Assembly: GCA_028873925.1 (NCBI GenBank)
Contig: JAPPNA010000026.1
Coordinates: 3,378-67,377, forward strand
Direction: 5' to 3'
Source of the DNA: Bacteroidota bacterium
Lineage (GTDB): Bacteria > Bacteroidota > Rhodothermia > Rhodothermales > Bin80
Length of the DNA stretch: 64,000 bases
Shown here: in pieces, positions 4,178-57,461 of the stretch
Numbering within the stretch: the stretch's first letter is position 1
How the letters are laid out: every line of letters begins with the position of its first letter
Program-made: the position numbers and the translations under genes
The notes under the pieces: model-generated
The model's input: only the letters and a program-made list of their open reading frames with translations
What the model was told of the DNA's origin: nothing
The model's database searches: none

Positions 4178-4228
4178 TGCAACCTGGCGGCGGCAATCGG
4201 GTACGAATATCAAGGATTCTCCTGCGGC

Positions 4229-4603: not shown

Positions 4604-4610
4604 AAAGGCG

Positions 4611-4693: not shown

Positions 4694-4740
4694 GCGGGAA
4701 AGCCAATGTATCCCGCCGCCACCCCGATTGTTCCCTTTGT

Positions 4741-5781: not shown

Positions 5782-5791
5782 CCCCGTTTGG

Positions 5792-21406: not shown

Positions 21407-22120
21407 CTAACCATCGCTCTTCGCCCCGCATTCGTAGGCCACGGCGGCCGCGAGGTGGTCATTGCCGCAGTTCTCAAGCCGCCAACAGATATCCGCCATC
21501 TGCGGAAGGCGATATCGGCAGCGTAGCGCTCCCTGCCGCATCACCGAAGGGATTTCAAATTGGGAGGTGTCCATGGCAAACCCGGTGCCTATGGCCTTGA
21601 TCAGCGCTTCCTTCAAGGTCCAGAGGGTATAGAACAGGCGGGTCTTGTTTCTTCCGCGCGCAGCCGAGAGTTCCGCCTGTTCGTTCGGACCGAAAACCAA
21701 GGTAGCCACGCCATCTATGTCCGGGCGCATAATCGGTGCTTCCACATCTACGCCCACCATTCCTTCGTCAACCACGGCAATCAGGTCGTGCTTGCCGCTG
21801 TGACTTACATTGAAGCTGACCGGAGCCCGTTACCCGCCCACCTGAGCAAACGGTTTGCCGTGACGGGTCGCCTGCAGCAGAAGCCTGGAGGCATCGCAAC
21901 CAAGCCGATCGCTCAAGATAGACCTCAGCGCCGCGCGGACCAGCGCAAACCCCCGGCGGGGGCGCTCATACCGAAAACGGTGCCAGCGATCCTGCTCCTG
22001 CGGGTCCAGCATACGGAAGGCCCTTGCCTCCCGCTTCGCATCGGAGGTCAGGTCAACATGGAACAGCTGAACATCGCCCAGCCTGCGAAACTCACTCCAC
22101 TCCGCCTGACCGACCAACAT
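21407..22120 (-). pseudogene. Sfp-type 4'-phosphopantetheinyl transferase with an in-frame TAA
   Basis: ORFs 21830-22120 and 21407-21775 are in the same frame: ...HGKPFAQVGG*RAPVSFNVSHSGKHDLIAVV...GVDVE...WTLKEALIKA, with the stop at 21830-21832. Confidence 0.85.
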
Positions 22121-22226: not shown

Positions 22227-22453
22227 CTAGCCTTCCAGGCGATTGATCAGCTCCCGGAGCGTGGAAAATCCGGCGCTCTCGGCCGGAGAGATGTCCGCAC
22301 CGAACTCCTCATTAACCTTTTTCAGGAATGCGACCGCATCCATTGAGTTCCCCCTCCCCCCAACTCGCTGGTGCTCACATCCAACTGAGCGCGATCCGAG
22401 ATCCCCAAGTGCTCTTCCACCAGGGCTGCAACACGATCTTCAACAGAGGCCAT
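22227..22453 (-). pseudogene. Stand-alone acyl/peptidyl carrier protein, frameshifted in a G6AG5 tract at the Ser attachment motif
   Basis: MASVEDRVAALVEEHLGI...SELGGGG is followed, one nt out of frame, by NSMDAVAFLKKVNEEFGADISPAE..LRELINRLEG*. The tract lies at 22350-22361. Confidence 0.75.
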
Positions 22454-26200: not shown

Positions 26201-27849
26201 TGGGACCAAGCCACTTCAGACGAATCCAACCGGATTTCAAGGGATCCGACCGCATCATTGGCCCCCACTCCGGTGCCGCTGAACGTCCAAGCGGCGTTCA
26301 GGGAGCTCTCCAGGGGGGAGTCAGGCCAGAGCAAGGAAATATCAAACGTATGGGTCTGCCCGGAAAGCTGATAGTCCGGTTCGTTTCCCGCCCACGAAAT
26401 ACCCCCTTCCACCTCCAAACGGCTGTTGCCGAGGTAGGCCGAACCGCGACCGGAAAGCACCCGGCCTGCATATGTCGCTGCCAGACGGAGGCTGTCCAGT
26501 GATCGGCCGTTAACCGCAGAGGCATCCAGGTTGGCCTGAATATTCACATCCGGCGTACGCAGGCCGCTTCCGGTTAGCGTTGCATGGCCGCGCAGCGACC
26601 CCGTAAGCGGAAAACCTGGCGGCATCCGGTCCAGGACCCATTCATCTGAGTGTACCGACACGGTATAGGTCCAGGCCGTATCCCGAACGGCCGCGATTGA
26701 GCCGGCCAGATGACCGGCACCGGCATAAAGGTTGAGGGAGGCACTGGCGTTGGGGCGTATGGGGTCTCGTGTACCGTGCATTTCAGCGGTGAGGGAGTCA
26801 ATGGCCGGCAGTGTCGGGCTTCCGGGCAGCACGGTCTGGAGCATATCATCTCCCAGTGCACCCTCGGTGACGGTGACCGCATAGGACTCGGTATCCATCA
26901 TGCCGCTGGCGGTCACGAACGACGGGCCTGCCTCCAGGGTCAGATCCTCAAAGTACACCAGCTGAGGCGCGATCCCGATTGTTCCAACGATGGTAAGTGT
27001 ATCTTCAACCGGAGCATTGGGCAGCAGTGCTTGGACCAGGGTTGGCGACAGGACAATCTCGTTAATGAAGAAGGTGAAACTCCGGCTGTCCGACTCCTGA
27101 ATACCGGTCAGCGTAACGCGATTGGGCCCGCTCTCCAGCCTCAGGGAATTGATATACCAGCGGTTTTCCTGCAGCACGGCTTCTCCGGCAAGGGAGGTAA
27201 GCATGAGGGCCTGCGCCGGGAGGCGGGCGCTCATACCGTGCAGCAGCACAAATCGCTCATCAGTCTGCCAGTTGAGCTGCGCCTCCAGACTTATGTTATC
27301 TACAGTCAGATCTGTCGGATCGACATGTGACAGTTGAACCCTGCGGCTGCGCGTCTCATTTGTCGTAATGATCCGGCCGCCGCTGATGGTGATCTGGGCG
27401 GACTCCAGCTCCCAGGCCCGGCTGGTATCCGCGGGGGCGGTACGATGTCGGACAGATCCCAGATTCCAGGTGCTGTCCGCCTGGAAACGCGCATACAGGT
27501 CCACATCCTGTATGTCCAATTCGCGAACATTGAATTTTCTTTTGGGCAGATCCAGCCAGCGCGGACGCAAGGAAACCGTACCGGCATGAATCATCAGGCT
27601 GTCGGAAGCATCGTAGAGCCGTACGTCCAGGAGATGCAGGTCCCGGAGCAGACTCCCGCGAATGTCTGCCACGGTGAGTCTGCCATCAAAGGCTTCGGCA
27701 AACCAGTCCTCCAGACTGTTCCTTAGCGCATCACGTCCGACCTGCGTGTGCGTAAAGCTAAGGGCCACCAGAAAAACCGCTCCAAGCAGCGTGCCCAGCA
27801 GACCGATCAGAATGCGAAATACTGGGCGCTTGAGCACGGTTTCAGGCAA
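23287..27849 (-). CDS. tamB: Translocation and assembly module protein TamB (DUF490 C-terminus)
   Basis: 1520 aa with an N-terminal membrane anchor (FRILIGLLGTLLGAVFLVAL), a long beta-rich body and a TamB-like C-terminal region. Confidence 0.8.
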   Translation of the reverse strand: MPETVLKRPVFRILIGLLGTLLGAVFLVALSFTHTQVGRDALRNSLEDWFAEAFDGRLTVADIRGSLLRDLHLLDVRLYDASDSLMIHAGTVSLRPRWLDLPKRKFNVRELDIQDVDLYARFQADSTWNLGSVRHRTAPADTSRAWELESAQITISGGRIITTNETRSRRVQLSHVDPTDLTVDNISLEAQLNWQTDERFVLLHGMSARLPAQALMLTSLAGEAVLQENRWYINSLRLESGPNRVTLTGIQESDSRSFTFFINEIVLSPTLVQALLPNAPVEDTLTIVGTIGIAPQLVYFEDLTLEAGPSFVTASGMMDTESYAVTVTEGALGDDMLQTVLPGSPTLPAIDSLTAEMHGTRDPIRPNASASLNLYAGAGHLAGSIAAVRDTAWTYTVSVHSDEWVLDRMPPGFPLTGSLRGHATLTGSGLRTPDVNIQANLDASAVNGRSLDSLRLAATYAGRVLSGRGSAYLGNSRLEVEGGISWAGNEPDYQLSGQTHTFDISLLWPDSPLESSLNAAWTFSGTGVGANDAVGSLEIRLDSSEVAWSQGRSAVLPHRWTVALDRPQRHAVGLHIGGDVLNLEAAGRLEFSALRAVSEVWMMAVRDSRKRQADKRRSRPPTSTVAFWPPLEQFQAVTRAENAMARTPLNQLSVDAQWQVLRGDLLPGLPALTAGHTGSMMLRGNPYTLDIGMDLFGADLSTESWSVQEAALSLQASAHINAPLERSLKLSGTARAERLTGPGTDLVNAGLDWHLEAGSGGIRLEADESDGPGSGEISASFEMQEDRNRLTVGTAAINIRGASWLMRQPARIDLFGDGAVFDPLVLESTIANTGRSQRLQFSGALSGAAEDTFKVSLENLILEQLSNTLGLARRRLGGNLNARLQWTGLGSPEITGLVEVDTLSLNRRMVGAFRAESQLVPGSDDLQVRTVVRPPDRYPDHLIHAENDLTVEGRVRPPGADRTGQLDLIVDLKRLDAGFLEEMIPILEGVTGGISGEGIVRGPMNSPELNLTMALPDGRLTIPRHNTAFAASASFNLLREGLQISDLRLTDPDGGTAQIDGWLRFNEYRYLSYDLESQLNALQVMNVPTFTRDLAFYGDLRASGDATLTGPSASAFLRSDNLVTTPQSELLIPIRDLDAEVDPGFIIYADSTRSITEQISAIRAREHLLDRRPEGERDFRTGLDMDLNMRGPPGSSIRLVIDPLLGDVINGIGTARVQVQRQEGQMLMYGSFDLTSGDYLFTAGEVFVRRFLISEGMIVWEGDPTNPRLDIQASYRTRASRSGLPDDVGGRLNTSLPLIVELHITGTLNAVQVGLNLAIDQRREAISDSPLLEGYLNQPDRAAEHATSVLLTNSFLLSAQGGSTDVLAGSAFNSVSSLVANQLNRYLGQVIPNADFTLGVQSDEAAADLDVSAGIALRLLDERLVIRGLGVYRNLNAPEETAQLQGLEGEFVVELRLRPNVAVEVFYRRESDALSETLMTSETGLGINYRAEFVSWKRLWRRIFRKEPSDLTARSTERAQ

Positions 27850-30073: not shown

Positions 30074-31423
30074 TTACCCCGGGGATGTGTTGCACACGCC
30101 ATCAAGCGCCGGTATCGCTAAGCGGGAGATATTGAGCAGTTCGTTGGTGAAGTACTCTGTAATGGTACCGCCGCCGGATTCGCACTCCTCATGTAGCTCG
30201 GGAACGAGCGCATACCAGTCGTCAAAACGACCGCCACGATTGAACTGAAACCAGTGCGCGGATGACGCTTCAAGCTGGAGGCCCTGATCCCGCAACGCCT
30301 GATTCAGTGTTTTAAGCCACGATGCCTGAATCTCTGATGGCTTCGGACACCCATGGCTGACCCCTCGAAACCAATCCAACGGCCCCTTACCGTGGGATTG
30401 GAGGCGGATCTTGGGGCCTATGTCATATCGGTCCCAGCTGTGATGCCCGATTTGCAGGTCGTTTGCGTAGCGCACCACGCCCTTATATCGGAAGAATACT
30501 GTAAGTCCCAAATCCGGCCAGTCCTGCTGCAACCGGGATTCAACAGTGTTGCGCAGATGCTCCAGAAACCGCCTGCACACCTCGTCTCGCAAGGGCATCC
30601 ACGCCTCGCGTACGGCGCGTGCTGTTCCAAGGTACTTCGGATTTTCGAGCAGAAAGTTGAGTACGGTCCAGGTTTCTCTGTTTCCTGCCATTTTGATCTT
30701 ACCAAATCTTTTTCTACAATACGCCTCAACATCCCGTAGGAATGCCCGGACACGGCTGGCTTTGCATCGCCGGCTGCAGGAAGCGAACCAGTCCGCGAGT
30801 GAATCTTTTCCCACATACGGCATGGCCACAAACCGTTTCTCCCACAGTAAACGGTCCGATGGTGACAGATCCTGCCTAGAGGGCCCTCTACCTTTGGGTG
30901 GCAGGTATACCAGCAGAAAGTGCTGTCCGTATTGGCTATTGAGAAAACGGAGATACCGGGTCACCTGGTCAGCTGACTGGGGCGCGTAGGGCTTGTTTTC
31001 AAATGCCAGGCAGAATATCCTGTCGCCATCCGGGATTTCAATTGTGATATCAATGCGCCCACCCGAAGCCGTACCGTGTTCTCGCCGCACCATAATGGGA
31101 TTACCCGCCGACGTGAACAGCCGTGCGAACCGATCGCGGGTCTGATCAAAGGCATCCAACATGGCCTCCAGAAACAGGGTGCCCTGCCCATGGTCCTGCG
31201 TTGGATCAAGCAGGTCGGCTATCACCCGCGACCAACCTAATTCGTCGGTGCGCACGTATTCAAATACATTGAAGCGGCGCGCGAGATAGCGATCCAATTC
31301 ACGCTCAAGCGCCCGATCTGCCTCAATACGGGGCGCGAGCTCCGCGAAGAGTGTTTGACAGTACACGGCGGCTTCTTCCATCGTTAAGCCACCCCGACTG
31401 ACTGTCCTGCCGGGCTCCTGCAC
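30074..31423 (-). CDS. PD-(D/E)XK nuclease superfamily protein (PDDEXK_4-like N-terminal domain plus uncharacterised C-terminal half)
   Basis: FNVFEYVRTDELGWSRVIADLLDP..HGQG..FLE, then GGRIDITIEI...CLAFENKPYA (D...E-x-K). The alternative start is at 31381. Confidence 0.7.
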   Translation of the reverse strand: MQEPGRTVSRGGLTMEEAAVYCQTLFAELAPRIEADRALERELDRYLARRFNVFEYVRTDELGWSRVIADLLDPTQDHGQGTLFLEAMLDAFDQTRDRFARLFTSAGNPIMVRREHGTASGGRIDITIEIPDGDRIFCLAFENKPYAPQSADQVTRYLRFLNSQYGQHFLLVYLPPKGRGPSRQDLSPSDRLLWEKRFVAMPYVGKDSLADWFASCSRRCKASRVRAFLRDVEAYCRKRFGKIKMAGNRETWTVLNFLLENPKYLGTARAVREAWMPLRDEVCRRFLEHLRNTVESRLQQDWPDLGLTVFFRYKGVVRYANDLQIGHHSWDRYDIGPKIRLQSHGKGPLDWFRGVSHGCPKPSEIQASWLKTLNQALRDQGLQLEASSAHWFQFNRGGRFDDWYALVPELHEECESGGGTITEYFTNELLNISRLAIPALDGVCNTSPG

Positions 31424-32478: not shown

Positions 32479-32973
32479 ATGTACAGCTCAGCCACCATTG
32501 CCGACTATTTCATTCACAAGGGCTCCCAGGAGAAGATCCGGCTGACACCCATGCAGCTGCTTAAGTTGGTTTACATTGCGCACGGATGGTATCTGGGCAA
32601 CCATGGCAAGCCTCTGATCTACGACGAGATTCAGGCGTGGCATTTTGGCCCCGTTATCCCTGTGCTGTATCACATGATCAAACACAACGGGCCCAAACCG
32701 CTCAAGACGTTTGTCCGCAGTCCGGATCGGGCCGGAAAGGAAGAGCTGCTGCCTGACGATGTTCAGCACTTCCTAAATTTGGTATGGAAAGAGTATCGCA
32801 ATTATTCCGGGTCCGAATTGTCTCAATTGACCCATCAGCCAGGTGCCCCTTGGGCCCAAGCCCGAAAGAAGCATCCGTATGCGCAGTACAATGTGCCGAT
32901 TTCCAATGACATAATTCAGGCCTATTACCGGGCGAAGGTGGAGCAGGCAAGGCAGGAGGTAGCCCATGGCTGA
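32479..32973 (+). CDS. Panacea/DUF4065 domain protein (SocA-like type II antitoxin, PanA)
   Basis: IADYFIHKG...LTPMQLLKLVYIAHGWYLGNHGKPLIYDEIQAWHFGPVIPVLYH is the DUF4065 signature as I remember it. Confidence 0.8.
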   Translation: MYSSATIADYFIHKGSQEKIRLTPMQLLKLVYIAHGWYLGNHGKPLIYDEIQAWHFGPVIPVLYHMIKHNGPKPLKTFVRSPDRAGKEELLPDDVQHFLNLVWKEYRNYSGSELSQLTHQPGAPWAQARKKHPYAQYNVPISNDIIQAYYRAKVEQARQEVAHG

Positions 32974-33307: not shown

Positions 33308-33573
33308 TCCGATTCCCGTCCCAGGTTCGGAAGATTTCGGCACGGATTTGCGCCATCCTCCCAGCCGCGGTCCAGCGCAGCGGCCGCGAAACACCGAATA
33401 CGGATGGTGCCGGCATCAGTCGCACCACGGCTCTGAAGACACCGCAGCGCCCCGCCGCAAGCTAACGCGGATTTGGTCCTCCCATTGAAACTACGCAGGC
33501 GCAATACCGTACCATGCAATTTTCGGGATGCATTACAGCCAGCTTGTGGCTCACTAAGGCGCGCAGCGAATCC

Positions 33574-34056
33574 ATGTACAGCTCAATAACCGTAGCCAAT
33601 TTCTTCATCGCCAAGGGCCTCAAGGAGAAGATCCCACTGACTCCTATGAAGCTGCTGAAGCTGATATATCTTGCGCACGGGTGGTATTTGGGCAATCACG
33701 AGAAGCCCCTGATCTATGACGAGATTCAGGCTTGGCGTCATGGACCGGTTATTCCCGTGATCTATCACGCGGTTGAGCATATCGGGCCTAATCCGCTGAA
33801 GACGTATATCCGCAGCCCGTACCGTGCAGGTAGGGAAGAGCTGTTGCCTGACGACATTCAGCGCTTTCTGAATCGGGTGTGGGAAAATTATCGCGACTGG
33901 TCCAGTTCCGAATTATCCCATTTGACCCATCGGGTGGGTGCCCCTTGGGACCAAGCCCGTCAGAAGCATCCCAATGTGCAACACGATGTGCCGTTACCCA
34001 ATGAATCGATCCAGGCCTATTACGCAAGAGAAAGTGGAGATATTACGGCAGCGTAA
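33574..34056 (+). CDS. Panacea/DUF4065 domain protein (PanA copy 2)
   Basis: MYSSITVANFFIAKG...LTPMKLLKLIYLAHGWYLGNHEKPLIYDEIQAWRHGPVIPVIYH. The ATG at 33574 corresponds to the copy 1 start. Confidence 0.8.
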   Translation: MYSSITVANFFIAKGLKEKIPLTPMKLLKLIYLAHGWYLGNHEKPLIYDEIQAWRHGPVIPVIYHAVEHIGPNPLKTYIRSPYRAGREELLPDDIQRFLNRVWENYRDWSSSELSHLTHRVGAPWDQARQKHPNVQHDVPLPNESIQAYYARESGDITAA

Positions 34057-45602: not shown

Positions 45603-45806
45603 ATGTCCCGCAATGAAGTTCCTATTGCCGTTATAGGCATGGCGTGCCGGTTTCCCGGTGCCACCAGCATATCAGAATTCTGGCAACTGCTCATTGACGG
45701 GGGGAACTCCGTACAGGAAGGTCTTCCGGGTGCGGGTAACAAGCGTATTGATGAGCTGTTTGCCAATGTAGCAGATCCGGGCGGTGCTTGTCGGTTTTGC
45801 GCCTAA
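45603..45806 (+). CDS. PKS fragment 1: KS1 N-terminus
   Basis: IAVIGMACRFPGATSISEFWQLL. Confidence 0.8.
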   Translation: MSRNEVPIAVIGMACRFPGATSISEFWQLLIDGGNSVQEGLPGAGNKRIDELFANVADPGGACRFCA

Positions 45807-46227
45807 CATTGACGATATAGAACAGTTTGACGCGGGATTCTTTCGAATCTCCCCGGTGGAGGCCGAGTGGTTGGATCCCCAGCAGCGGATGATGCTGGAG
45901 ACCAGTTGGCAGGCACTCGAAGATGCCGGGATCGATCCAGACAGTCTGAAGGGCAGTCGGACCGGGGTGTATACCGGCATCAGCAACGACGAGTATCGAA
46001 TGCTCGTGGTTGAGTCCGGTAAACCCGCCGACGCTGCATCCTGCCTTTACGCCCTGAGCGGTACCAATCTCAACGGCACCAGCGGACGTGTCGCCTTTGT
46101 GCTCGGCCTCATGGGCCCCTCCAAGGCGGTCGACGCGGCATGTGCCTCGTCGCTGGTTGCGGTACATGACGCGGTTACGGATCTGCAGGAGGGCAGGGCC
46201 GATATGACCATCGTGGGCGGAGTCTAG
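45784..46227 (+). CDS. PKS fragment 2: KS1 core
   Basis: FDAGFFRISPVEAEWLDPQQR and active-site DAACASSL. It ends IVGGV*. Confidence 0.8.
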   Translation: MLVGFAPNIDDIEQFDAGFFRISPVEAEWLDPQQRMMLETSWQALEDAGIDPDSLKGSRTGVYTGISNDEYRMLVVESGKPADAASCLYALSGTNLNGTSGRVAFVLGLMGPSKAVDAACASSLVAVHDAVTDLQEGRADMTIVGGV

Positions 46228-46272
46228 GCCATCCTGAACGGGCGCGTATTTGAACTCCGATCGGATGCCATA

Positions 46273-48657
46273 ATGCTTTCGCCGGATGGCCAGTGCAAGA
46301 CATTCGATGCTTCTGCAAACGGGTACGTGCGGGGAGAAGGCTGCGGGGTTGTCATCTTGAAGCGGTTCAGTGAAGCGGAGTCGGATGGCGATCGAATCCG
46401 GGGCGTTATTCGTGGCTCTGCGGTCAATCACGGAGGCGCAAGTACCGGACTGACGGTTCCGCATACCCCCGCGCTGGAAAAAGTGATTGAAACCGCACTC
46501 GCACATGCGGGCATTAACGCGTCTGAGGTGGACTATCTGGAAGCACACGGAACAGGTACCGGCGTAGACGATCCGATTGAGCTCAATGCCGTGGGATCTG
46601 TCTACGGTAAGGGACGCAGCGGGGAAGATCCGTTGCTGGTGGGCTCGGTAAAGACCAATATCGGCCATCTGGAATCGGCGGCCGGCATAGCCGGGCTGAT
46701 TAAGGCTGTGCTGGTCATGCAGCGCGGAGTTATTCCCAGGCACCTGCATTTTGAGTCCCCCACCCCGGCTGTCGACTGGAGTGACCTGCCGCTGCGCGTA
46801 ACCTCATCCATGATGGACCTGCCGCCGCGCGCGGGAAGACCGCGGGTGGCCGGGGTGAATTCGTTCGGAATTTCCGGCACCAATGCTCACCTGGTCGTGG
46901 AGGAGTACTGCGGCATGTCCAACACGCGCGTGAAGGGGGCACCTCAGCGCGTAGCCATTCATCTGCCGGAGTCCCTGGGAACACCTGCTGACACAAAACG
47001 ACCGGTCCGTCCGCGCGGAGCACGGATCCTACCGCTGTCCGGCAAATCTTCAGCGGCCGTGCGGGACCTGGCCGCGCGTTATCTGCTGTGGATGGACGAA
47101 CATGCGGAAGAAATTGCGACGGATGGCTCTGGCGCATTCCTTGCAGACATGGCCTGGACCGCAGGGGTCGGTAGAAGTCACTTTGCATATCGCTCAGCCA
47201 TCGTCTTCAACGACGCGGCATCACTGCAAAGCCAGCTTCAGCCGCTGGCTGAATCAGGCGGCAGCCCTAAATCACTGGTTGCGCCAAAAGTGGCGTTCGC
47301 CTCTACAGGGCAGGGGAGCCAATGGGCCGGTATAGGACAGGTACTTTACGAGCGCGAACCGGTAGCAAGGGCGGTCCTGGATCGGTGCGAGGAGGTGTTT
47401 CAAGCCGAGAGAAACACGTCACTGCTGGATGCCATGTTCGGACGCAGCCAGGCTGATCTGAGCGATACTGCATGGGAGCAGCCGGCGCTCTACGCGCTAG
47501 AGTGCGCGCTGACAGCGCTTTGGGCAGGATTCGGCATTCGCCCGCCTGTCGTAGTGGGGCACAGCGTCGGCGAACTGGCCGCTGCACAGGCCGCAGGCGT
47601 GTTCAGCCTTGAGGACGGGATGCGGTTTGCCTGCGTGCGCGGCATGCTGCTGTCGGCTACCGACCCCGGTGCTATGGCGGCGGTTTTTGCATCGCCGGCG
47701 CGGGTAGCCGCCATGGTTAATACCGTGAACGCGTCTACGGATGGCGTAGGGTTAAGCATTTCGGCGGACAACGGCACCCATCAGGTGGTTAGCGGTCCGA
47801 TAAGGGTAGTCGAAAGCATCCAGGAGCGCTTTGAATCAGAAGGTACCCGGGTCAGGCGGCTCAATACGGCCCGGGCATTCCACAGTGCTATGGTGGAACC
47901 GGCGCTGGAGTCACTGGAGGCATCCCTCGAAGGCGTGGTTATCAATTCGCCCCAGGTGACGGTAGTCAGCAATCTGACAGGACGGGCATTGGAGCGCGAC
48001 CAGCTGCTGGATGGTGCCTATTGGCGGCAGCACGCGCGCAACGCGGTCGCGTTTGCTTCCGGTGTCAGGACCATGGCGGACCTTGGCGTGGATGTTGTGC
48101 TGGAAATCGGCCCGCGTCCGGTGCTCACCAATATGGTGGCGCTCGCCTGGCCGGAATCCTCGCAGCCACCGGCCATGATTCCGGGTCTGCATGTGCCGTC
48201 TGACGAAGGGAAAGAAAGCGGTGCCGACTTTATGCAGGCGGTCGCCCAGGTTCATTCCGCGGGGTTGCCCCTTTGCTTTGAAGCACTCTTTGCCGGAGAG
48301 ACACGCCGCCGGATTGCACTGCTCGGCTATCCATTCCAGCGTGAACGCTACTGGATTGATGCCGCAAAGCGGCATCGGCCTGTTTCGGGTCATCCGCTGC
48401 TGGGACTGAGGCACGCGTCCGCCAGCGGAGAAATCACATTTGAGACGGAGGTGTTTCCAACGGATCCGGTCTGGCTGAGTGATCACCGGGTGTACGGCCG
48501 CGTGATTGTTCCCGGCGCGATGTACGGCGCTATGGCCGCGCTGGCGTGTCTGAACGAAGAAAGCGGATCGGTGGTCGTAAGCGATGTGCAGCTTCATAAT
48601 GCACTGATATTCGCCGAAGACCATTCCGATGACGATGCCATTGAATCCGGCCGCTAA
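46273..48657 (+). CDS. PKS fragment 3: KS1 C-terminus, AT1, DH N-terminus
   Basis: MLSPDGQCKTFD, EAHGTGT, NIGHLE; AT GHSVGE (47556-47573) and RAFHS; DH HRVYGRVIVP. Confidence 0.85.
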   Translation: MLSPDGQCKTFDASANGYVRGEGCGVVILKRFSEAESDGDRIRGVIRGSAVNHGGASTGLTVPHTPALEKVIETALAHAGINASEVDYLEAHGTGTGVDDPIELNAVGSVYGKGRSGEDPLLVGSVKTNIGHLESAAGIAGLIKAVLVMQRGVIPRHLHFESPTPAVDWSDLPLRVTSSMMDLPPRAGRPRVAGVNSFGISGTNAHLVVEEYCGMSNTRVKGAPQRVAIHLPESLGTPADTKRPVRPRGARILPLSGKSSAAVRDLAARYLLWMDEHAEEIATDGSGAFLADMAWTAGVGRSHFAYRSAIVFNDAASLQSQLQPLAESGGSPKSLVAPKVAFASTGQGSQWAGIGQVLYEREPVARAVLDRCEEVFQAERNTSLLDAMFGRSQADLSDTAWEQPALYALECALTALWAGFGIRPPVVVGHSVGELAAAQAAGVFSLEDGMRFACVRGMLLSATDPGAMAAVFASPARVAAMVNTVNASTDGVGLSISADNGTHQVVSGPIRVVESIQERFESEGTRVRRLNTARAFHSAMVEPALESLEASLEGVVINSPQVTVVSNLTGRALERDQLLDGAYWRQHARNAVAFASGVRTMADLGVDVVLEIGPRPVLTNMVALAWPESSQPPAMIPGLHVPSDEGKESGADFMQAVAQVHSAGLPLCFEALFAGETRRRIALLGYPFQRERYWIDAAKRHRPVSGHPLLGLRHASASGEITFETEVFPTDPVWLSDHRVYGRVIVPGAMYGAMAALACLNEESGSVVVSDVQLHNALIFAEDHSDDDAIESGR

Positions 48658-51600
48658 GGTACAGGTGGTCATTGAGCCTTCCGAAGCCTCAACATCGCGG
48701 CGAATTCAGATTTTCAGCCGAGGCACTGAGGATGGCTGGACACTGCATGTGGAGGGGCACCTGGCCCCGGACACCCGGCTGCCGAAAGGCGGCGGACGTA
48801 CAGACCTGGAGGGCCTGAAGGCTGGCCTGACACCGGTGGAGCCCTCATCCTATTATCGGGCCCGGCTGGATACGGGGATTGATCTGGGTCCGTCCTTTCG
48901 GACGCTGAAGGGGCTATGGTCCAAGCCGGGCGAGGCGCTCGGCGAGGTAACCTTCCCGGAAACGCTCGGGCGCAATGATCTGCATATTCATCCGCTTCTG
49001 TTGGATGGATGTTTTCAGGTGGTGGCCGCCGCGCGCAATCCCGGAGGCGTGGAAGGCGAGGTCACCTATCTGCCGTTCGGCTGGGAAAGACTCTGGCTGC
49101 AGGGTCGGCTCCCGGAGCGTGTGTTCTGCCATGTACGGATGAATGAGGTACCCGCGGAGGCACGCAGTAATGCCGACGAGGTCCCCGAGGTAATGAGCGG
49201 CGAACTGCGCATCTATGATACCCACGGCGTACCGCTCGGGGGCCTGTCGGGGTACTTGGTCAAGCGTGCGACGCAGACCGCGCTGCTTTCCGAAGCGGAG
49301 GGGATTGCGGACCTGCTCTATGAGATCGTCTGGCGCGAGAGCTCCCTGGCTCGCGCGATGCTGCCCGCGGATTTTCTTCCTGTCCCAGCGATGGTGGCGG
49401 CCCGATCCGGGCTGCTCTCTGCGTATTTGGCCGAAGAAGGAGTTGAACCCGAACAGAGAACAGCCCTGCTGACCGACCTGGAGCGGTGGTCGCGCTCCCG
49501 CGCACTGCTGACCTTGGATGAGTTGGGATGGGAGCGCAGGCAGGGCGACGCAGTCGTTGCTGAAGAGTTGCGCAAGTGGCTTGGAGTCATCGCAGATCAT
49601 GAGCGCCTTTTTCGCAGGATGCTGGAAATGCTGGCTAAGTCCGGCGTGTTGGCGGAAAGAAACGGCGCGTTTGAAGTGAAGATTGCTTCCAGAGATGCCC
49701 TGCCGGACGCGATGCCGACAGACCTTGAGGCCTTTGCCGACCGGATGGCCCGGCGGTATCCCCACGGCAGGACGGAAATCGGGTTGTTTCGGCGTTGCGG
49801 CAGTGCCTTGGCCCGCGTACTGCGCGGACAGGCCGATCCGCTGACACTTCTGTTCAGCAGCGGAGATCCGACCCCCGGAGATCTGTACCTGAAGGCACCG
49901 GTAGCCCGTGCGGCCAACCGCATTCTGAAGGAAACCGTCCGAACGCTGGTGGCCGACCTGCCGGCGGATCGGGATCTCAGGATCATTGAGGTGGGGGCCG
50001 GTACCGGCTCAGCCACCGCGGCCATCCTTCCCGAACTTCCGAAGGGGCGGTTCAGCTACATGTACACCGACATTTCGGCGGGCTTCTTTGCGGAAGCGGA
50101 GGCGCGATTCGGCGAAAATGGATCGTCAGTTGAGTATCGGCCGCTGGATATTGAGAAGGATCCGGTCGCCCAGGGCTTTGAAGCGCACAGCTATGACTTG
50201 CTGATTGCCTCCAATGTGCTGCATGCCACCCGGTATCTGCAGGAGACGCTCCGGCACTGCCGGGAACTGCTGACACCGTATGGTGAGCTGGTAGCCCTTG
50301 AAAATCTGAGCGGTCAGGGGTGGATGGACCTGACATTCGGGCAGTTGGACGGGTGGTGGCGTTTCGCTGATGACTACCGTCCGCACCACGCGCTGGCCGG
50401 TCCGGCCGTGTGGCGCAGGGCTCTCGGCGATGCCGGATTTGGCGAGGTGGCGATTCTCGGCGTGGAAGAGTCGGATACGTCCATAAGGCCGGATAAGGGG
50501 GTGATCGTGGTTGAGGGCCCGAAAAAGGTGGCGGAAAGCCCGGGCAGTTGGATCCTGTCCACCGACCAGGGGGGCGTGGCCGCAGAATTGGCGACAGATT
50601 TGGTCCGTCGCAACCAGACCGTGATCCTGGAGGGTGACCGGGATGCACAGGCTCCCGACCCGAACGGAATTATCCGAAGAAATTCGGCCATGGATCGGCG
50701 GGAGTCCTGGGAGGCATTGCTGGACGCGTTGCCTCAGGATGTGCCGTTAAGTGGCATCGTCCATCTCGCCGCGCTGGATGGCCACGGCCCGCATGGGTCA
50801 ACCGCGGCCATGGCTCGGGATACACGGCGTGTGGTGGAGAGTGCGCTGTCGCTGACCCAGGCGGTTGCGGATGCTGATCGGGTGCCGACCAGGAGCATGT
50901 GGTTTGTTACGCGGGGTGCACAGGTGCTGGAAAAAGAGCGTGCCGGTCAGTTGGCCGGAGCGACGCTATGGGGATTTGGGAAAGCCATCGATCGGGAGCT
51001 TGCGCATCTGCAGCCGCGCATGATAGATTTGGATCCCGGCGGGTTGGCAGCCGCCCCCGACCTTGTCCTGGAACTGCTCAATCCTGATCACGAAAACCAC
51101 ATCGCCTATCGGTCAGGTCGTCGGCAGGTTGCCCGTCTGGTACGGGCGGGTGCCGGGGCCGAGCGCGTAACCCTGCCGGACGAGGCGGCATGGGTGTTGG
51201 CTCCAGACCCGGACGGGATCATTGAAAAACCTCCGGTAAAGTCGCTGCCTCCCGGATTCCTGGAGCCGAAAGAGGTACGGGTTGCCGTGGAGGCCGCCGG
51301 TCTCAATTTCTGGGATGTTTTTCGCTCCCTGGGGTTCATTCGGGAGGGCAATCTCGGCAGGGAAATGTGCGGCATCGTGTTGGATGTCGGATCGGAGGTC
51401 TCATCCGTGTCGGTCGGAGATCATGTGGTCGGGCTGGGATTCGGCGCGTTTGCCGCGGAAATGGTCACCCATGAGGAGCTGGTGGCACCCGCGCCTGCGG
51501 GTATGTCCGTGTCGGAGCTCGCCACGGTACCGAGCGCCTTTGTGTCGGCCGCATTGTCGTATGAACTCTCGGGTCTCAATGCCGGCGATCGGGTACTGAT

Positions 51601-52513
51601 TCACGCCGGTGCGGGGGGCGTGGGACTTGCGGCCATTCTACTGGCTCAGGCCGCGGGGGCGGAGGTGTTTGCGACAGCGAGTGCGCCGAAGCAGGGATAC
51701 CTGCATTCACTGGGGGTCAGGCATGTATTCAACAGCCGCGAGACGGCGTTTGGGGAGGAGATTCTACAGGTCACCGGGGGTGGCGGAATCAATGTCGTCC
51801 TCAACAGTCTTACCAGCGAGGGATTCATTGATGCCAGTCTGTCCTGTCTCGCCCAAGGGGGAAGGTTCGTCGAACTGGCACGCCGGGATATCCTCAGCGA
51901 GGAGGAAATGGCTGCGTTGCGCCCCGATGTGAAGTACGACATTCTGGAGCTGGATGTGCTCAAGAAAACTGACCCGGAATGGGTCGGCCGGGTACTTCGG
52001 GAGGTGCTCAGGCAGTTTTCGGAAGGTGTGCTCCAGCCGATCACACACAGCCGGTGGTCGCTTTCCGAAGCGGGTGCTGCGCTGCGTTTTATGCGATCCG
52101 CCCGCCACCTTAGCAAGATCGTTGTGACCGCATCACCGCTTGCCAGAGGTGAGTTGCGGGCGGACCGTTCATATCTGGTTACCGGCGGACTCGGAGGTAT
52201 CGGATGCGCGGTCGCCGTGTGGCTGGCCGACCATGGCGCGCAATCGATAGTACTGAACGGGCGCAGGCCGCCGGACCCGGAGGCACAGGCCGTCATTGAT
52301 GCGCTTGAAGCGCGGGGCGTAACGGTACAGGTGGCGCTGGCGGATGTGACCGACACCGCCGCAGTGAACAGTATGCTGGCCTTTATAGATGAGGAGCTGC
52401 CTCCCCTTGGCGGAGTGATCCACAGCGTGGGGGTATTGTCAGACGGAGCGCTCGGCAATCAGAGCTGGCAGCGTTTTGAGCGGGTATTATGGCCTAAAGT
52501 AGTCGGGGCCTAG
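48629..52513 (+). CDS. PKS fragment 4: DH C-terminus, C-methyltransferase, ER, KR N-terminus
   Basis: IIEVGAGTGS; ER LIHAGAGGVGLAA; KR YLVTGGLGGIG. It ends WPKVVGA*. Confidence 0.85.
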   Translation: MTMPLNPAAKVQVVIEPSEASTSRRIQIFSRGTEDGWTLHVEGHLAPDTRLPKGGGRTDLEGLKAGLTPVEPSSYYRARLDTGIDLGPSFRTLKGLWSKPGEALGEVTFPETLGRNDLHIHPLLLDGCFQVVAAARNPGGVEGEVTYLPFGWERLWLQGRLPERVFCHVRMNEVPAEARSNADEVPEVMSGELRIYDTHGVPLGGLSGYLVKRATQTALLSEAEGIADLLYEIVWRESSLARAMLPADFLPVPAMVAARSGLLSAYLAEEGVEPEQRTALLTDLERWSRSRALLTLDELGWERRQGDAVVAEELRKWLGVIADHERLFRRMLEMLAKSGVLAERNGAFEVKIASRDALPDAMPTDLEAFADRMARRYPHGRTEIGLFRRCGSALARVLRGQADPLTLLFSSGDPTPGDLYLKAPVARAANRILKETVRTLVADLPADRDLRIIEVGAGTGSATAAILPELPKGRFSYMYTDISAGFFAEAEARFGENGSSVEYRPLDIEKDPVAQGFEAHSYDLLIASNVLHATRYLQETLRHCRELLTPYGELVALENLSGQGWMDLTFGQLDGWWRFADDYRPHHALAGPAVWRRALGDAGFGEVAILGVEESDTSIRPDKGVIVVEGPKKVAESPGSWILSTDQGGVAAELATDLVRRNQTVILEGDRDAQAPDPNGIIRRNSAMDRRESWEALLDALPQDVPLSGIVHLAALDGHGPHGSTAAMARDTRRVVESALSLTQAVADADRVPTRSMWFVTRGAQVLEKERAGQLAGATLWGFGKAIDRELAHLQPRMIDLDPGGLAAAPDLVLELLNPDHENHIAYRSGRRQVARLVRAGAGAERVTLPDEAAWVLAPDPDGIIEKPPVKSLPPGFLEPKEVRVAVEAAGLNFWDVFRSLGFIREGNLGREMCGIVLDVGSEVSSVSVGDHVVGLGFGAFAAEMVTHEELVAPAPAGMSVSELATVPSAFVSAALSYELSGLNAGDRVLIHAGAGGVGLAAILLAQAAGAEVFATASAPKQGYLHSLGVRHVFNSRETAFGEEILQVTGGGGINVVLNSLTSEGFIDASLSCLAQGGRFVELARRDILSEEEMAALRPDVKYDILELDVLKKTDPEWVGRVLREVLRQFSEGVLQPITHSRWSLSEAGAALRFMRSARHLSKIVVTASPLARGELRADRSYLVTGGLGGIGCAVAVWLADHGAQSIVLNGRRPPDPEAQAVIDALEARGVTVQVALADVTDTAAVNSMLAFIDEELPPLGGVIHSVGVLSDGALGNQSWQRFERVLWPKVVGA

Positions 52514-52516
52514 CAT

Positions 52517-55500
52517 TTGCACCTTGCTACCCGGGACATGGATCTGGACCTCTTCATTCTCTTTTCCAGCCGCGTCGGGGTGATGGGAAATCCGGGCCAG
52601 GCGAACCATGCGGCCGCCAATGCCTTCCTGGATCAGTTGGCTGCGCACCGACGGACCATCGGACTGCCGGGCCAGACCATTGCCTGGGGAGCCTGGTCGG
52701 ACATCGGCGGGGCTGCTGAGCAGAAGGAAAGGATTGAACGGCGGCGGGCGGCGCTGGGGGGGCGGTGGTTTACCCCTCAGCAGGGGATCCGTGCGCTGGA
52801 CCGACTGGTACGCCAGGATGTGGTGCATGCGGTCGTGATGTCCATGGACTGGGCCGTATTCCAGGAAGCCGTTGAGGAGAGACCGGCTTTGCTGGAGGAT
52901 TTGTTCTCCGTCACGGCTGATCCCGCGGACGATACACCTGCGCTGGCCGAAGATCTGATCCACCGGCTGCGGCAGACACCCGCAGTGGAACGCGAAAACC
53001 TGCTCGTAGCCTTCCTCCAGCAAAAACTGCAGGCGGTGCTTCGCCTGCCCAACGAGCCCTCTCCGACCGTGGGATTCTTTGATTTGGGGATGGACTCGCT
53101 GATGGCCGTTGAGCTGCGGAATCGGTTGAATCGCGCCTTCGCCGATGAGTATGTGGCCTCCAATACGGTCGTGTTTGACTACCCGGACATAGCCGCGTTG
53201 GCCGGACATTTGACCGAGGAACTGGGAGAGCTTGGGGCTGCTTTTGCCATTACTCCTCCCCCTCAGCCGCAGATTATCACCGAAGAGCGGAGGTCTGCGC
53301 GGGGTGAGGACGACCATATCGCGGTCGTAGGCATGGCGTGCCGTTTCCCGGGTGCACCCGATCTGAGGGCATACTGGGATCTGCTTATGTCTGGCGGCAG
53401 TGCGGTGACGGAGGGCCGGCAGGATACCGGTCCGTGGAGCGGGGTAGTGGGTGATCCTGCGGCGGAGGATGATATTCTGAGACGCGGCGGGTTCATTGAA
53501 GGACTCGGCCAGTTTGATGCGGACTTTTTCGGCATTCGGCCGATTGAGCCGCGCGTGATGGACCCCCGGCATCGGATGCTGTTGGAGACATGCTGGCATT
53601 CGCTGGAGGATGCCGGAATTGACCCCGATTCATTGCAGTCCACTCAAGCCGGGGTGTACATCGGCCTTGGAAGCAGCGAGTACCGTGACCTGGTCGCTGC
53701 AATCGATCAGGATTACAACTTGTTGGGCACTTCAGGGAGCATAGCTATCGGGCGTGTCGCTTTCGCGTTGGGTCTGATGGGGCCCGCAATGGCGATGGAC
53801 ATGACCTGTGCGTCTTCGCTGGTTGCTATTCATCAGGCCGTTACCAGCCTCCACAATGGAGAGGTGACCCTGGCCCTGGCGGGGGGTGTACATTCGGTTC
53901 TTTCTCCCGCCATAACTCGATTCATGGCGGAGTATGGCATGCTGTCGGCGGGCGGATTGTGCCGGACGTTTGACGCGGGTGCCGACGGATTCGTTCGGGG
54001 CGAAGGGTGCGGGGTCATTGTTCTCAAGCGCCTTTGTGATGCCGAGGCTGACGCAGATCGTATCTGGGGCGTTATTCGGGGGTCTGCCGTGAATCAGAAC
54101 GGGGCGAGCGCCGCGCTTACGGTACCCAACGGGAAGGCACAGGAGCAGGTGCTGGAAGAGGCCCTGTTGCGGGCGGGCGTTCCGCCAGCGGAGGTGGATT
54201 TTCTTGAGGTGCATGCTACCGGGTCCCAGTTGGGAAATCCCATTGAAGTCCACGCTCCGGCTTCCGCGTATGGCAAGGATCGCCAAGCCGAGCGGCCTCT
54301 GCTGCTGGGGACCGCAAAGACGAATATCGGCCATCTGGAAGCGGCTGCCGGGATTGCCGGCATCATCAAAACCCTGCTGGCCATGAAGCGGGGTATGATC
54401 CCCAAACACCTGCATTTTGAGCGTCCAAACCCGCATATGGACTGGCACCGACTGCCGGTTGAGGTTACTTCGGAGGCCATGGACTGGCCGCTGACCACTG
54501 AACGCCCGCCGCAGGCGGGCGTGAGCGCATTCGCACTCTCCGGGACCAATGCGCATGTCGTGGTGGAAGGATACGGCCCAACGGAGGGGTCTGGAGATGG
54601 GAACGCTGCATTCCCGGTTCCGTTGGGACCTGCAAGGCGTGTTGTCCCGAGGGTGCCCGCACCCGTGCCGGAGCCGATGGATACCGTCCCCGGGCGCGAG
54701 GTGAGATTGCTGCCGCTGTCCAGAAAATCCCCCAGTGCCCTGCGAGACCTGGCGAAAGGATATCTCTCCTGGCTTGATGGCCAACTCTCCGGGCCGCCTG
54801 CGGCGGATGCCGGTCCGCTGCTTTCGGACATGGCGTGGACCGCGGGCGTAGGCAGGAGTCATTTTGCTCATCGCAAAGGCATAGTGTTCGACAGTGCGGC
54901 TTCATTGCGCAAGGGGCTGATGACGATTACCGAGTTAAATGGCATCCCACCGGCAACGCCGCCCAAACTGGCTATGGTGCTGGGTGGAGAAGTGGATCAG
55001 TGGAATGGAATCGGGGCCGAATTGTACGAGCGTGAATCGGTAGTGCGGGCGGTGCTGGATCGCTGTGACCAGGTGCTTCAAGGCGAGCGCGATGGCTCTC
55101 TGTTGGAGCTGATATTGGGATCATCCGGAGACCCTGCGTTGATGCATCCGGCCATCTGTGCGCTGGAGTGTGCCCTGGTTGCGCTTTGGGGCAGTGTCGG
55201 GCTCCGGCCCAACATAGTACTTGGAATCGGATCTGGAGAAGTGGCGGCGGCCCATGCAGCCGGTATTTTCACGCTGGAGGAGGGCTTGGTCTTTGCGGCG
55301 CGACGCGGCGCGTTGATCGGCAGACATGCCGACCTGACGCTCTCCGATCTTGAGCAGGCGCTGTCGGATGCTGCCTGTACCCGCCCGGTGATCCCGCTGA
55401 TCTGTGGGTCCAGCGGACACCTGGCTGACGCGACGCTGGATGCGTCCTACTGGCACCGGAAAGTGCGTGCGCCGGGAAATATTGACCGATGCGTAGCAAT

Positions 55501-55828
55501 GCTTGCCGACGCAGGTGTCGGGGTCATAATTGAAGCCGGTCCGGGGCGTGTGGTGGGACCGAAGATCATTGGGGCTTGGCCAGGCGCGAATGTCGGGGCA
55601 GGGCAACCGGCACCTGGCGCACCGGCACCCGCAGTGCTGGCCAGCCACCGAGTGCCATCCGATGAAGAGGCACTTGGTGGATGGGTCTTTGCAGAGGCGG
55701 TAGCCCGGGCCAATGAAGCGGGATTTCCTGTGGACTTTGCAGGGCTGTTCGCCGGCGAAAACAGGTGCCGCATATCCATTCCCGCCTATCCGTTCCAGCG
55801 TCGGCATTACTGGTTCAGGGAGTCGTAG
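52517..55828 (+). CDS. PKS fragment 5: KR C-terminus, ACP, KS2, AT2 (degenerate)
   Basis: FILFSSRVGVMGNPGQANHAAAN; ACP LGMDSL (Ser codon 53096-53098); KS2 DMTCASSL, VHATGS, NIGHLE; AT2 GIGSGE (55223-55240) instead of GHSxGE. Confidence 0.85.
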   Translation: MHLATRDMDLDLFILFSSRVGVMGNPGQANHAAANAFLDQLAAHRRTIGLPGQTIAWGAWSDIGGAAEQKERIERRRAALGGRWFTPQQGIRALDRLVRQDVVHAVVMSMDWAVFQEAVEERPALLEDLFSVTADPADDTPALAEDLIHRLRQTPAVERENLLVAFLQQKLQAVLRLPNEPSPTVGFFDLGMDSLMAVELRNRLNRAFADEYVASNTVVFDYPDIAALAGHLTEELGELGAAFAITPPPQPQIITEERRSARGEDDHIAVVGMACRFPGAPDLRAYWDLLMSGGSAVTEGRQDTGPWSGVVGDPAAEDDILRRGGFIEGLGQFDADFFGIRPIEPRVMDPRHRMLLETCWHSLEDAGIDPDSLQSTQAGVYIGLGSSEYRDLVAAIDQDYNLLGTSGSIAIGRVAFALGLMGPAMAMDMTCASSLVAIHQAVTSLHNGEVTLALAGGVHSVLSPAITRFMAEYGMLSAGGLCRTFDAGADGFVRGEGCGVIVLKRLCDAEADADRIWGVIRGSAVNQNGASAALTVPNGKAQEQVLEEALLRAGVPPAEVDFLEVHATGSQLGNPIEVHAPASAYGKDRQAERPLLLGTAKTNIGHLEAAAGIAGIIKTLLAMKRGMIPKHLHFERPNPHMDWHRLPVEVTSEAMDWPLTTERPPQAGVSAFALSGTNAHVVVEGYGPTEGSGDGNAAFPVPLGPARRVVPRVPAPVPEPMDTVPGREVRLLPLSRKSPSALRDLAKGYLSWLDGQLSGPPAADAGPLLSDMAWTAGVGRSHFAHRKGIVFDSAASLRKGLMTITELNGIPPATPPKLAMVLGGEVDQWNGIGAELYERESVVRAVLDRCDQVLQGERDGSLLELILGSSGDPALMHPAICALECALVALWGSVGLRPNIVLGIGSGEVAAAHAAGIFTLEEGLVFAARRGALIGRHADLTLSDLEQALSDAACTRPVIPLICGSSGHLADATLDASYWHRKVRAPGNIDRCVAMLADAGVGVIIEAGPGRVVGPKIIGAWPGANVGAGQPAPGAPAPAVLASHRVPSDEEALGGWVFAEAVARANEAGFPVDFAGLFAGENRCRISIPAYPFQRRHYWFRES

Positions 55829-56243: not shown

Positions 56244-57461
56244 CTACGTCGGTATGTCCGGTCTGAACGCTAGGCACCGGAAGTAGTCTTCAATGCGCCT
56301 GTACTCGGCCGAGTCCATGAATTCCTCCAGTCTGCGGACTAATTCCTGTCTGATCTCCGGTGCTGAGAGGTCTGCAAGCTCATCGGTGGACAGGAGTTGG
56401 TAGTCAAAGACCTGATGCCAGCCGAAGCCGTTGTTTCGGATTGCGTATTGCTCCTGTCTGCTGATCGGTGTTGATTCCATAAAGCATATGAGCCGGTCCA
56501 ACCGGGTCGTGTCTTTGTCCGCCGACTGATGGAGATAAAAGCCTGCACGGATGGTGTGACGTTTAAATGTCATCCCCCACCAGAGGGAGAGATCCCCGCC
56601 GCCCAGTTTGCGCTCCGCGTCGGAAAGATCCGTATTCGTCCAGTTCAACCAGTCGGTTCCAGCCGCGGCATTGTGCGTCAGATGGAGCTTGAAGCCGTAT
56701 CTCTTGAGCAGGCCTGCCACCACCTTCCTGAGGTCCTTTGGATTCATTCGTGATTGTTGCGCCAACTCAACAATCGTGTCGCGATAGTCAGCCTGAGCCT
56801 CCGGCACCCTTATACGGACCCCTTTTTCGCCATCCTTTTCCCAGACCCGGCGCATCTCCTTCAGGAGGCCCTCAAAGCCTCCGTCCCCCGCGGGACGAAG
56901 CCAGTTTTCGAGCAGTTCCAGGTACTGTCGGAAGAACGACTGCACGCTGGAGGATGGAAATTCCCCGGCAACACGGAGTGATTCGATGGATTCACGGACG
57001 GATGACCAGCTCATATGGGCTGTGGCGGGAAACTGCGCCTTATCATCCGGCGAGGTGGTGAGCAGGACACTCTGAATCCTGTAATCCTCGTACTTGCCTC
57101 GGAGCGTTCCCTCGTATGCCATTATCTGGTCGCGGTGCTCGGCCGAGGCCGGGCCCGTCTTGTTTTCAATGGTAATCAGGTATTTCTCCCTCTTAAAGAA
57201 GATCGTGATGTTAACATAGTCCAGCTCACGTTCAACACGGACATTCAAGGGTGCAAGGTCCACTTCGGGAAGAATCTCAAGCCCCGCTGCCTCAAGCCGC
57301 CCATTGATATGACGTACGAACCATTCCAGGAATCGGTCGCCGACACTGTGGGTTTCGGACGGATGTAGCAGCCACGCCAGCACATTGCTGTGGCGGATCT
57401 CGTAGTCGGCGTACCGAAGTACCTTAAAGGTGTTGAATTTCCGGGTCTCCCCGAGGCTCAA
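56244..57461 (-). CDS. PD-(D/E)XK nuclease superfamily protein (PDDEXK_4-like), paralog of 30074-31423
   Basis: FNTFKVLRYADYEIRHSNVLAWLLHPSETHSVGDRFLEWF, then LDYVNITIFF...YLITIENKTGP. Confidence 0.7.
   Translation of the reverse strand: MSLGETRKFNTFKVLRYADYEIRHSNVLAWLLHPSETHSVGDRFLEWFVRHINGRLEAAGLEILPEVDLAPLNVRVERELDYVNITIFFKREKYLITIENKTGPASAEHRDQIMAYEGTLRGKYEDYRIQSVLLTTSPDDKAQFPATAHMSWSSVRESIESLRVAGEFPSSSVQSFFRQYLELLENWLRPAGDGGFEGLLKEMRRVWEKDGEKGVRIRVPEAQADYRDTIVELAQQSRMNPKDLRKVVAGLLKRYGFKLHLTHNAAAGTDWLNWTNTDLSDAERKLGGGDLSLWWGMTFKRHTIRAGFYLHQSADKDTTRLDRLICFMESTPISRQEQYAIRNNGFGWHQVFDYQLLSTDELADLSAPEIRQELVRRLEEFMDSAEYRRIEDYFRCLAFRPDIPT

Follow-up and report, generated by a model that had tools for sequence, protein, structure and literature searches.

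A probable Sup-type polyketide synthase pseudogene, decaying in an uncultivated sponge-associated Bacteroidota population

Introduction

Does a giant reducing polyketide synthase (PKS) that ends in a ketosynthase-acyltransferase (KS-AT) didomain, with neither a carrier nor a release domain behind it, represent a new kind of synthase, or is it a damaged member of a known family? The question is raised by a locus at positions 45603–55828 (plus strand) of a 64,000-nucleotide stretch of DNA, hereafter the window (contig JAPPNA010000026.1 of the Bacteroidota bacterium assembly GCA_028873925.1), in which a sequence-only reading, made without database searches, had described one fully reducing, C-methylating module followed by a second KS-AT. 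Our analysis indicates that the locus is very probably a decaying Sup-type synthase pseudogene in an uncultivated sponge-associated Bacteroidota population. The synthase pathway is non-functional in the window, because the synthase gene carries two frameshifts and two nonsense codons and its partner genes are displaced and all disrupted. The Bacteroidota background, suspected from the sequence, is borne out by housekeeping proteins of the window that are identical to proteins named “Bacteroidota bacterium” at NCBI.

Sup (sponge symbiont ubiquitous PKS) synthases are described as small, monomodular, sponge-specific and taxonomically independent, and sup dominates the KS amplicons obtained with DPQQ/HGTGT primers (PMC4245539, PMC3908369, PMC9426513, PMC9864124). 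Conservation of the SUP cluster across sponges has been reported, as has its presence in metagenome-assembled genomes (MAGs) of several phyla (PMC9426513). Frameshifts were found in 15.4% of supA amplicons, and Sup has been proposed as a source of mid-chain-branched fatty acids (PMC4245539).

Results

Extent, reading frames and domains of the synthase pseudogene

The pseudogene extends over ~3400 codons in three frames, as defined by Pfam matches and colinear orthologues, from the ATG at 45603, where the KS N-terminus (MSRNEVPIAVIGMACRFPGA...) starts in frame 0, to the TAG at 55826–55828. Open reading frame (ORF) listing and stop mapping confirmed this start and end as well as the five ORF fragments of which the interval had been said to consist. 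The description of a single-frame giant synthase did not survive: the operative frames, set by frame-aware tblastn with three intact orthologues, are frame 0 over 45603–45797 (alignment from 45621), frame 1 over 45796–48654 and frame 2 over 48656–55825, and across all three the window synthase is colinear with intact orthologues over residues ~34–3443. It is interrupted by two +1 frameshifts and two in-frame TAG codons (46225 and 52511), each within a catalytic domain.

Pfam analysis of the repaired 3397-aa translation supports the domain order that had been read from the sequence, KS-AT-DH-MT-ER-KR-ACP-KS-AT, with MT a C-methyltransferase (cMT). All of these domains are encoded on the plus strand. 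KS1 (45621–46755; PF00109/PF02801) keeps its Cys-His-His residues and the motifs LDPQQRMMLE and EAHGTGT, and is broken by frameshift 1 and by the TAG at 46225; AT1 (47296–48189; PF00698) has intact active-site motifs (GHSVGE, RAFHS); DH (48391–49285; PF21089/PF14765) keeps HxxxGxxxxP and is split by frameshift 2. The cMT (49925–50440; PF08242/PF13489) shows the SAM motif EVGAGTG, and the ER (51266–52126; PF08240/PF00107/PF13602) the NADPH motif HAGAGGVG. The KR catalytic subdomain (52169–52702; PF08659) has an intact Rossmann motif, is broken by the TAG at 52511 and carries a His (52607–52609) at the expected position of the catalytic Tyr. The integrated ACP (53015–53212; PF00550; GMDSLM) is followed by KS2 (53312–54424, end approximate), which is ~52% identical to KS1 and keeps Cys, His and His, with HATGS instead of HGTGT. 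The last segment (54986–55825) comprises a degenerate AT2, with GIGSGE and no Ser at the equivalent of GHSxG, and a post-AT linker. Thus, the terminal AT of the sequence-only reading is present, as a partial and degenerate domain: its Pfam match covers only 54986–55318 (profile positions 6–120 of 319), and the nucleophile Ser has become Gly. The protein ends in the conserved motif YPFQRRHYW. Pfam finds no ACP or TE domain behind AT2 in the repaired translation, and the next 10 kb downstream contain none either.

Frameshift 1 (45794–45797) consists of one T too many in a run of four (TTTT), which moves the frame from 0 to 1, at a site monomorphic in four strain variants of the locus (see below). 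The G at 45699 is ancestral by orthologue alignment and is not the site of the N-terminal frameshift; the TAGs at 45634 and 45769 fall outside the operative frame by orthologue tblastn. The TAG in KS1 (46225–46227), between the active-site Cys and the first His, is private to the window strain; the other three variants have CAG (Gln) and orthologues have H, Q or N at this codon. Frameshift 2, likewise confined to the window strain, results from an inserted T at 48655, between the two DH motifs, which moves the frame from 1 to 2 and creates a TAA at 48655–48657. The TAG in KR (52511–52513), between the Rossmann fold and the catalytic residues, is found in all four variants and replaces a Trp (GAWHLH) that is invariant in 60/60 intact orthologues.

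Gene callers return separate proteins with Pfam matches from this interval, as would be expected if the five ORFs were functional subunits of a split synthase. Such an arrangement is nevertheless extremely improbable, given that every break bisects a catalytic domain (KS1, DH or KR), that the positions of the breaks vary by strain and that the orthologues are single ORFs. The related notion of a naturally split family, raised by listed protein matches of at most 1908 aa to a 1103-aa query, was rejected as an artefact: in both protein searches the listed matches stopped at ~1.75 times the query length (401 aa for a 229-aa query), and genomic tblastn shows single ORFs of ~3400 aa. A full-length enzyme might alternatively be made if the in-frame TAGs were read through (by amber suppression or recoding) or the shifts were programmed, and TAG is indeed the codon of the two in-frame stops that fall in operative frames of the synthase, and of its terminal stop. 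We give almost no credence to this explanation: TAG terminates tatC and several other conserved window genes at their expected ends, the stops in the PPTase and hydrolase genes of the accessory cassette (see below) are TAA, the lesions are polymorphic (CAG/TAG at 46225, T present or absent at 48655), and no single reassignment fits a TAG replacing Trp at 52511 and another replacing Gln at 46225.

Strain variants and relaxed constraint

The locus was recovered from three short-read sample assemblies, two NCBI MAGs and one long-read contig, the copies representing four strain variants that are 0.3–1% divergent. An identical C-terminal ORF and the flanking genes are present in the sponge metagenome assemblies ROBB21-1 SAMN13943213, SAMN13943214 and SAMN13943215, and the window matches scaffold_806 of SAMN13943215 with 0 differences over 10 kb. 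Common to all four variants are the KR TAG at 52511, frameshift 1, the TAA in the hydrolase gene and the frameshift in the discrete ACP gene. Private lesions in the other strains include CAG>TAG at 47338, TGG>TAG at 48472 and 1-nt deletions at 45699, 46345 and 48754. Among the strains, 43 synonymous and 50 non-synonymous polymorphic codons, plus indels, were counted in the synthase vs. 53 synonymous and 18 non-synonymous, with no indels, in eight flanking genes (Fisher p=4e-4 for the non-synonymous excess), a pattern of relaxed constraint and not of purifying selection.

These data bear directly on whether the organism has an intact gene in which errors of sequencing or assembly have produced the apparent stops and frameshifts. 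Two of the indels are indeed located in homopolymer runs, and ~13% of orthologous loci are broken as well, some of them in long-read assemblies, where indel errors are common. We regard this explanation as very unlikely, however, since three different short-read samples and one long-read assembly agree on the TAG in KR, on frameshift 1, on the TAA of the hydrolase gene and on the frameshift of the discrete ACP gene, nonsense substitutions are atypical of assembly error, the additional lesions differ by strain, and non-synonymous polymorphism is enriched relative to the flanks.

A tract at 47130–47403 (KS-AT linker and start of AT1), compared with L087/L088, holds ~38 substitutions specific to one strain variant within 270 bp, vs. 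a divergence of about 1% outside it; it looks like recombination from a diverged sup copy. In strain L084 (long-read contig ctg105277_9x_l), a 1-nt deletion at 45699 together with TAG>GAG at 45769 bypasses the shared frameshift at ~45797 and reopens a continuous N-terminal ORF at a cost of ~32 out-of-frame codons; the KR TAG and a DH frameshift of its own remain, and the reopened ORF may reflect chance or past compensatory selection.

Intact orthologues in sponge symbionts

The search of related genomes that the sequence-only reading had proposed was informative, yielding intact orthologues with partner genes alongside the synthase. A scan of species-representative (GTDB) genomes gave 518 relatives, of which the best 79 loci were analysed. 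The MAGs to which these loci belong span at least a dozen phyla (Chloroflexota, Acidobacteriota, Gemmatimonadota, Latescibacterota, Nitrospirales, Alpha-, Gamma- and Deltaproteobacteria, Rhodothermales and others), in line with PMC9426513, and many have bin names of sponge studies (SB06xx, RHO, COS, APA), the host origin being taken from record titles only. Of 70 loci uncut by contig ends, 60 contain one uninterrupted ORF, colinear over query residues ~54–3394 and stopping at the same C-terminal YPFQR..W motif; L072 is also intact, its sole apparent stop lying upstream of the start. Nine (about 13%) are disrupted by frameshifts or nonsense codons (L005, L011, L023, L025, L033, L055, L066, L069 and L079, with L003 listed beside them), five of the nine being short-read assemblies. 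The common ending of the 60 intact orthologues implies that a terminal KS-AT with nothing fused after it is a conserved design of the family, and the view that this didomain stands outside the sup picture has to be abandoned: every one of the 60 carries it.

Alignment of the 60 intact orthologues revealed which catalytic motifs are maintained. KS1 (Cys/His/His), AT1 (GHSxG), DH (H...P) and the integrated ACP (Ser) are conserved in 60/60; the ExGxGxG motif of the MT and the NADPH motif of the ER are also conserved. KS2 keeps its Cys in 60, first His in 58 and second His in 60 of 60, vs. an AT2 in which the nucleophile Ser is replaced by Gly in 51/60 and present in 2/60 (G-x-G-x-G-E, columns 3197–3202). 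The Rossmann motif of the KR is conserved, with His at the column of the catalytic Tyr (column H2325) in 59/60 and Tyr in 1/60, as illustrated by GQANHAAAN aligned with GQPGYAAAN of AmphB. Because the NADPH-binding motif is conserved together with the DH and ER motifs, the alignment suggests that the family KR is active with an unusual proton donor, and the family-wide His for Tyr could be an unrecognised catalytic variant of PKS ketoreductases.

The KS1 core of the window is 86% identical to a fragment of an Acidobacteriia/Terriglobia MAG, while the best species-representative loci reach ~65% overall; this pattern of identities is consistent with horizontal spread of sup between phyla.

Partner genes and their displacement in the window

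Among the 79 loci, a discrete ACP gene accompanies the synthase at 61, an alpha/beta-hydrolase gene at 60, an Sfp-type 4'-phosphopantetheinyl transferase (PPTase) gene at 35 and a gene for a Xan_ur_permease-family transporter at 40. In the usual layout, the ACP follows the synthase stop by ~100 nt, the PPTase by ~450 nt and the hydrolase by ~1200 nt; convergent and divergent layouts also occur among the relatives, and on the complete 5.56-Mb contig of L003 the hydrolase is upstream of the synthase and an 80-aa ACP just downstream.

The window holds the corresponding cassette (ACP, PPTase, hydrolase, permease) on the minus strand at 22453–18500, in the family gene order, divergently oriented and 23 kb away from the start of the synthase, with all four genes disrupted in the window strain. 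The ACP pseudogene (22230–22453) has a frameshift in a G-run at ~22349; once joined, its translation corresponds to a PP-binding domain of full length, with identities of 68% to the ACP encoded directly 3' of the L049 synthase and 44% to the ACP of the Rhodothermales locus L010, and a 38-aa ORF stub of the gene is present in all strains. The PPTase pseudogene (21407–22120; PF01648, PF22624) contains an in-frame TAA at 21832–21830, an intact 237-aa ORF being found only in the SAMN13943214 strain. The alpha/beta-hydrolase pseudogene (20364–21278), encoding a candidate release enzyme 48% identical to the L003 hydrolase (E=1e-96), is split into 93+208 aa by an in-frame TAA at 20999–20997, in the same way in all strains. 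The permease-family transporter pseudogene (18500–20207) runs through three frames with two frameshifts and is colinear with the family permease.

The absence of a second ACP and of a release domain, as noted from the sequence, is therefore true of the synthase polypeptide and untrue of the window, in which a discrete ACP, PPTase and hydrolase are encoded at 22453–20364 in disrupted form. These genes also bear on the idea of a novel type of reducing PKS that truly works without carrier and release functions for its last module. This idea finds its support in the lack of an ACP or TE fused after AT2 or encoded within 10 kb downstream; against it stand the cognate ACP, PPTase and hydrolase in the window and the 60 intact orthologues of the same architecture, which have an adjacent discrete ACP and hydrolase, so that we find it hardly credible.

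Between cassette and synthase lie ordinary genes, for TamB, an acetylesterase, PDDEXK_4, SocA-like proteins, a sulfatase, DHQ synthase, an FG-GAP protein, TonB, DUF4159, SHMT, OPRT and TatC. A 1520-aa ORF in this interval (23287–27849), considered as a possible second PKS of the window, is TamB. The separation of cassette and synthase is seen in three short-read sample assemblies and one long-read assembly, which argues for a rearrangement and not a misassembly. It had been allowed beforehand that relatives might show separate genes, with a downstream ACP/TE lost here by misassembly; the relatives show one gene, and the downstream ACP is indeed missing at that position, as a result of rearrangement. 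One 33-kb inversion would restore the order of synthase followed by ACP; as divergent layouts of the two genes also exist in the relatives L017 and L079, an inversion is one possible type of rearrangement. We found no inverted repeats or mobile-element remnants at 22.2–23.4, 44.7–45.9 or 55.7–56.4 kb; GC skew tracks the coding strand and is uninformative on rearrangement. The immediate surroundings of the synthase are as previously read, with tatC upstream, followed by ~0.8 kb without Pfam or synteny matches, and a PD-(D/E)XK gene (PDDEXK_4) downstream; no remnants of cluster genes were detected in either spacer (0.8 kb upstream, 0.4 kb downstream).

Comparison with known systems

The proposed link to the methyl-branching sup-type PKSs of sponge symbionts is supported by distribution and motifs. 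Like Sup, the window synthase has a single fully reducing module with a C-methyltransferase, nearly all of its homologues stem from MAGs of sponge symbionts in many phyla, the DPQQ and HGTGT motifs to which supA primers are directed are present in its KS1, and its family includes frequent frameshifted copies, as do supA amplicons. SupA reportedly ends in KS-AT, followed by small ACP, PPTase and hydrolase genes, and a discrete ACP, PPTase and hydrolase are said to define the published Sup cluster. What sets the window copy apart is its inactivation, its distance of 23 kb from the cassette and its occurrence in a Bacteroidota genome. Overall, the putative Sup membership is well supported by these features, if not proven by phylogeny.

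Three other systems resemble the locus in part. Mycocerosic acid synthase (MAS; PDB 5BP4, 9D2Y) and MAS-like PKSs share an iterative or monomodular, fully reducing KS-AT-DH-ER-KR-ACP core making methyl-branched lipids, and the KR region of the window matches MAS at E about 1e-38. In contrast to the window synthase with its cMT and malonyl-type AT1 motifs, MAS introduces branches from methylmalonyl-CoA and has no cMT; it also lacks a C-terminal KS-AT and discrete ACP or hydrolase partners, and its KR has the catalytic Tyr where the window family has His. A MAS-like affiliation was rejected on the grounds of the cMT, the malonyl-type AT1 motifs and the extra KS-AT. Condensing KSs paired with an inactive or vestigial AT (KS-AT° didomains; docking ATs of trans-loaded PKS modules) are resembled by a KS2 that keeps Cys-His-His beside an AT2 that has lost its nucleophile; they differ in that the partner ACP of the window family is free-standing and the module has no processing domains. 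Swf (sponge widespread fatty acid synthase; SwfA-C) is a second sponge-specific monomodular PKS/FAS family, also distributed across phyla, in which the SwfA KS has HATGT and no DPQQ, and the partners are SwfB, a reductase/sulfotransferase, and SwfC, a radical SAM protein (PMC3908369). Swf membership was rejected in view of DPQQ and HGTGT in KS1, the cMT and the ACP/PPTase/hydrolase partners.

Proposed working of intact relatives

Intact relatives comprise one ~3400-aa protein with separately encoded ACP, PPTase and alpha/beta-hydrolase and often a permease. From the domain logic, an acyl starter would prime KS1 directly, as there is no loading domain. AT1, whose motifs GHS[LV]GE and xA[FY]HS are malonyl-type by established AT motif rules, would load the integrated ACP, and module 1 would add one malonyl unit, to which the cMT would add a methyl branch and which KR, DH and ER would fully reduce. 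KS2, with its full catalytic triad, would then run a second condensation onto the discrete ACP, which would have to be loaded in trans, as AT2 has no Ser. The hydrolase might release the product, or the ACP might pass it to fatty-acid synthesis. This scheme agrees with the mid-chain methyl-branched fatty acids proposed for Sup (PMC4245539).

Other features of the window

PDDEXK_4 nuclease-family paralogues occur at 30074–31423 (minus strand) and 56244–57461 (minus strand), the latter being the gene immediately downstream of the synthase, and SocA/Panacea antitoxin-like genes at 32479–32973 and 33514–34056 (both plus strand). These genes may jointly make up a small defence or mobile island; at the DNA level, no repeat connects the copies. 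A 346-aa ORF (4741–5781, plus strand) with only fragmentary Peptidase_S46 matches immediately precedes a complete Peptidase_S46 gene (5771–7975, plus strand) and may be a truncated duplicate of it. In the long-read strain contig L096, a DDE transposase insert (3927–6224; DDE_Tnp_1, Tnp_DNA_bind, DruA), corresponding to ~13–15 kb of the window, lies within the region of the second CarboxypepD_reg/DUF5686 gene and is absent from the window strain; this difference indicates that mobile elements are active in this population.

Discussion

The locus belongs to a known family, of which it is a pseudogenised and rearranged copy; it does not represent a novel type of synthase, and the features that had appeared unusual are either the norm of that family or consequences of decay. 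Several observations weigh against a decaying Sup-type pseudogene as we have described it. The Sup identity is putative, being based on distribution, motifs and general background on the family. The ratio of non-synonymous to synonymous counts in the synthase is about 1.2 and not about 3, so its polymorphism is not fully neutral; the inactivation may be recent, or some of the variation may be older than the inactivation. The two homopolymer indels (TTTT and the G-run) occupy the most error-prone context, and they recur in independent assemblies. The two changes in strain L084 jointly reopen a 1070-aa N-terminal ORF. Finally, a second, intact sup locus is possible elsewhere in the genome, our view being limited to the 64-kb window.

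A synthase that looks carrier-less and release-less thus turns out to be built as is usual for a synthase very common among sponge symbionts, with free-standing partners, and the family motifs (a competent KS2, a dead AT2 and His for Tyr in the KR) provide testable constraints on the Sup mechanism. The inactivation of the synthase and its partner genes is population-wide, though the PPTase ORF is intact in one strain. More generally, biosynthetic clusters counted in MAGs can be dead, and surveys of biosynthetic potential ought to include a check of gene integrity. Taken together, the lesions, some shared and some private, amount to a dated series of natural losses of function in a family with a still hypothetical product.

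A broader and distinctly tentative suggestion, which we consider rather unlikely on present evidence, is that the loss of Sup in this population is one case among repeated losses, lineage by lineage, of a function for which the sponge community has redundancy. It is prompted by the disruption of 9/70 complete loci, a rate close to the 15.4% of frameshifted supA amplicons (PMC4245539), and by the presence of intact copies in many co-resident phyla; recurrent decay of sup genes may accordingly be real. If so, Sup products would represent a shared good in the sponge holobiont, their loss being of the Black-Queen type, and naturally “knocked-out” lineages such as this one could be used to test the function of Sup lipids.

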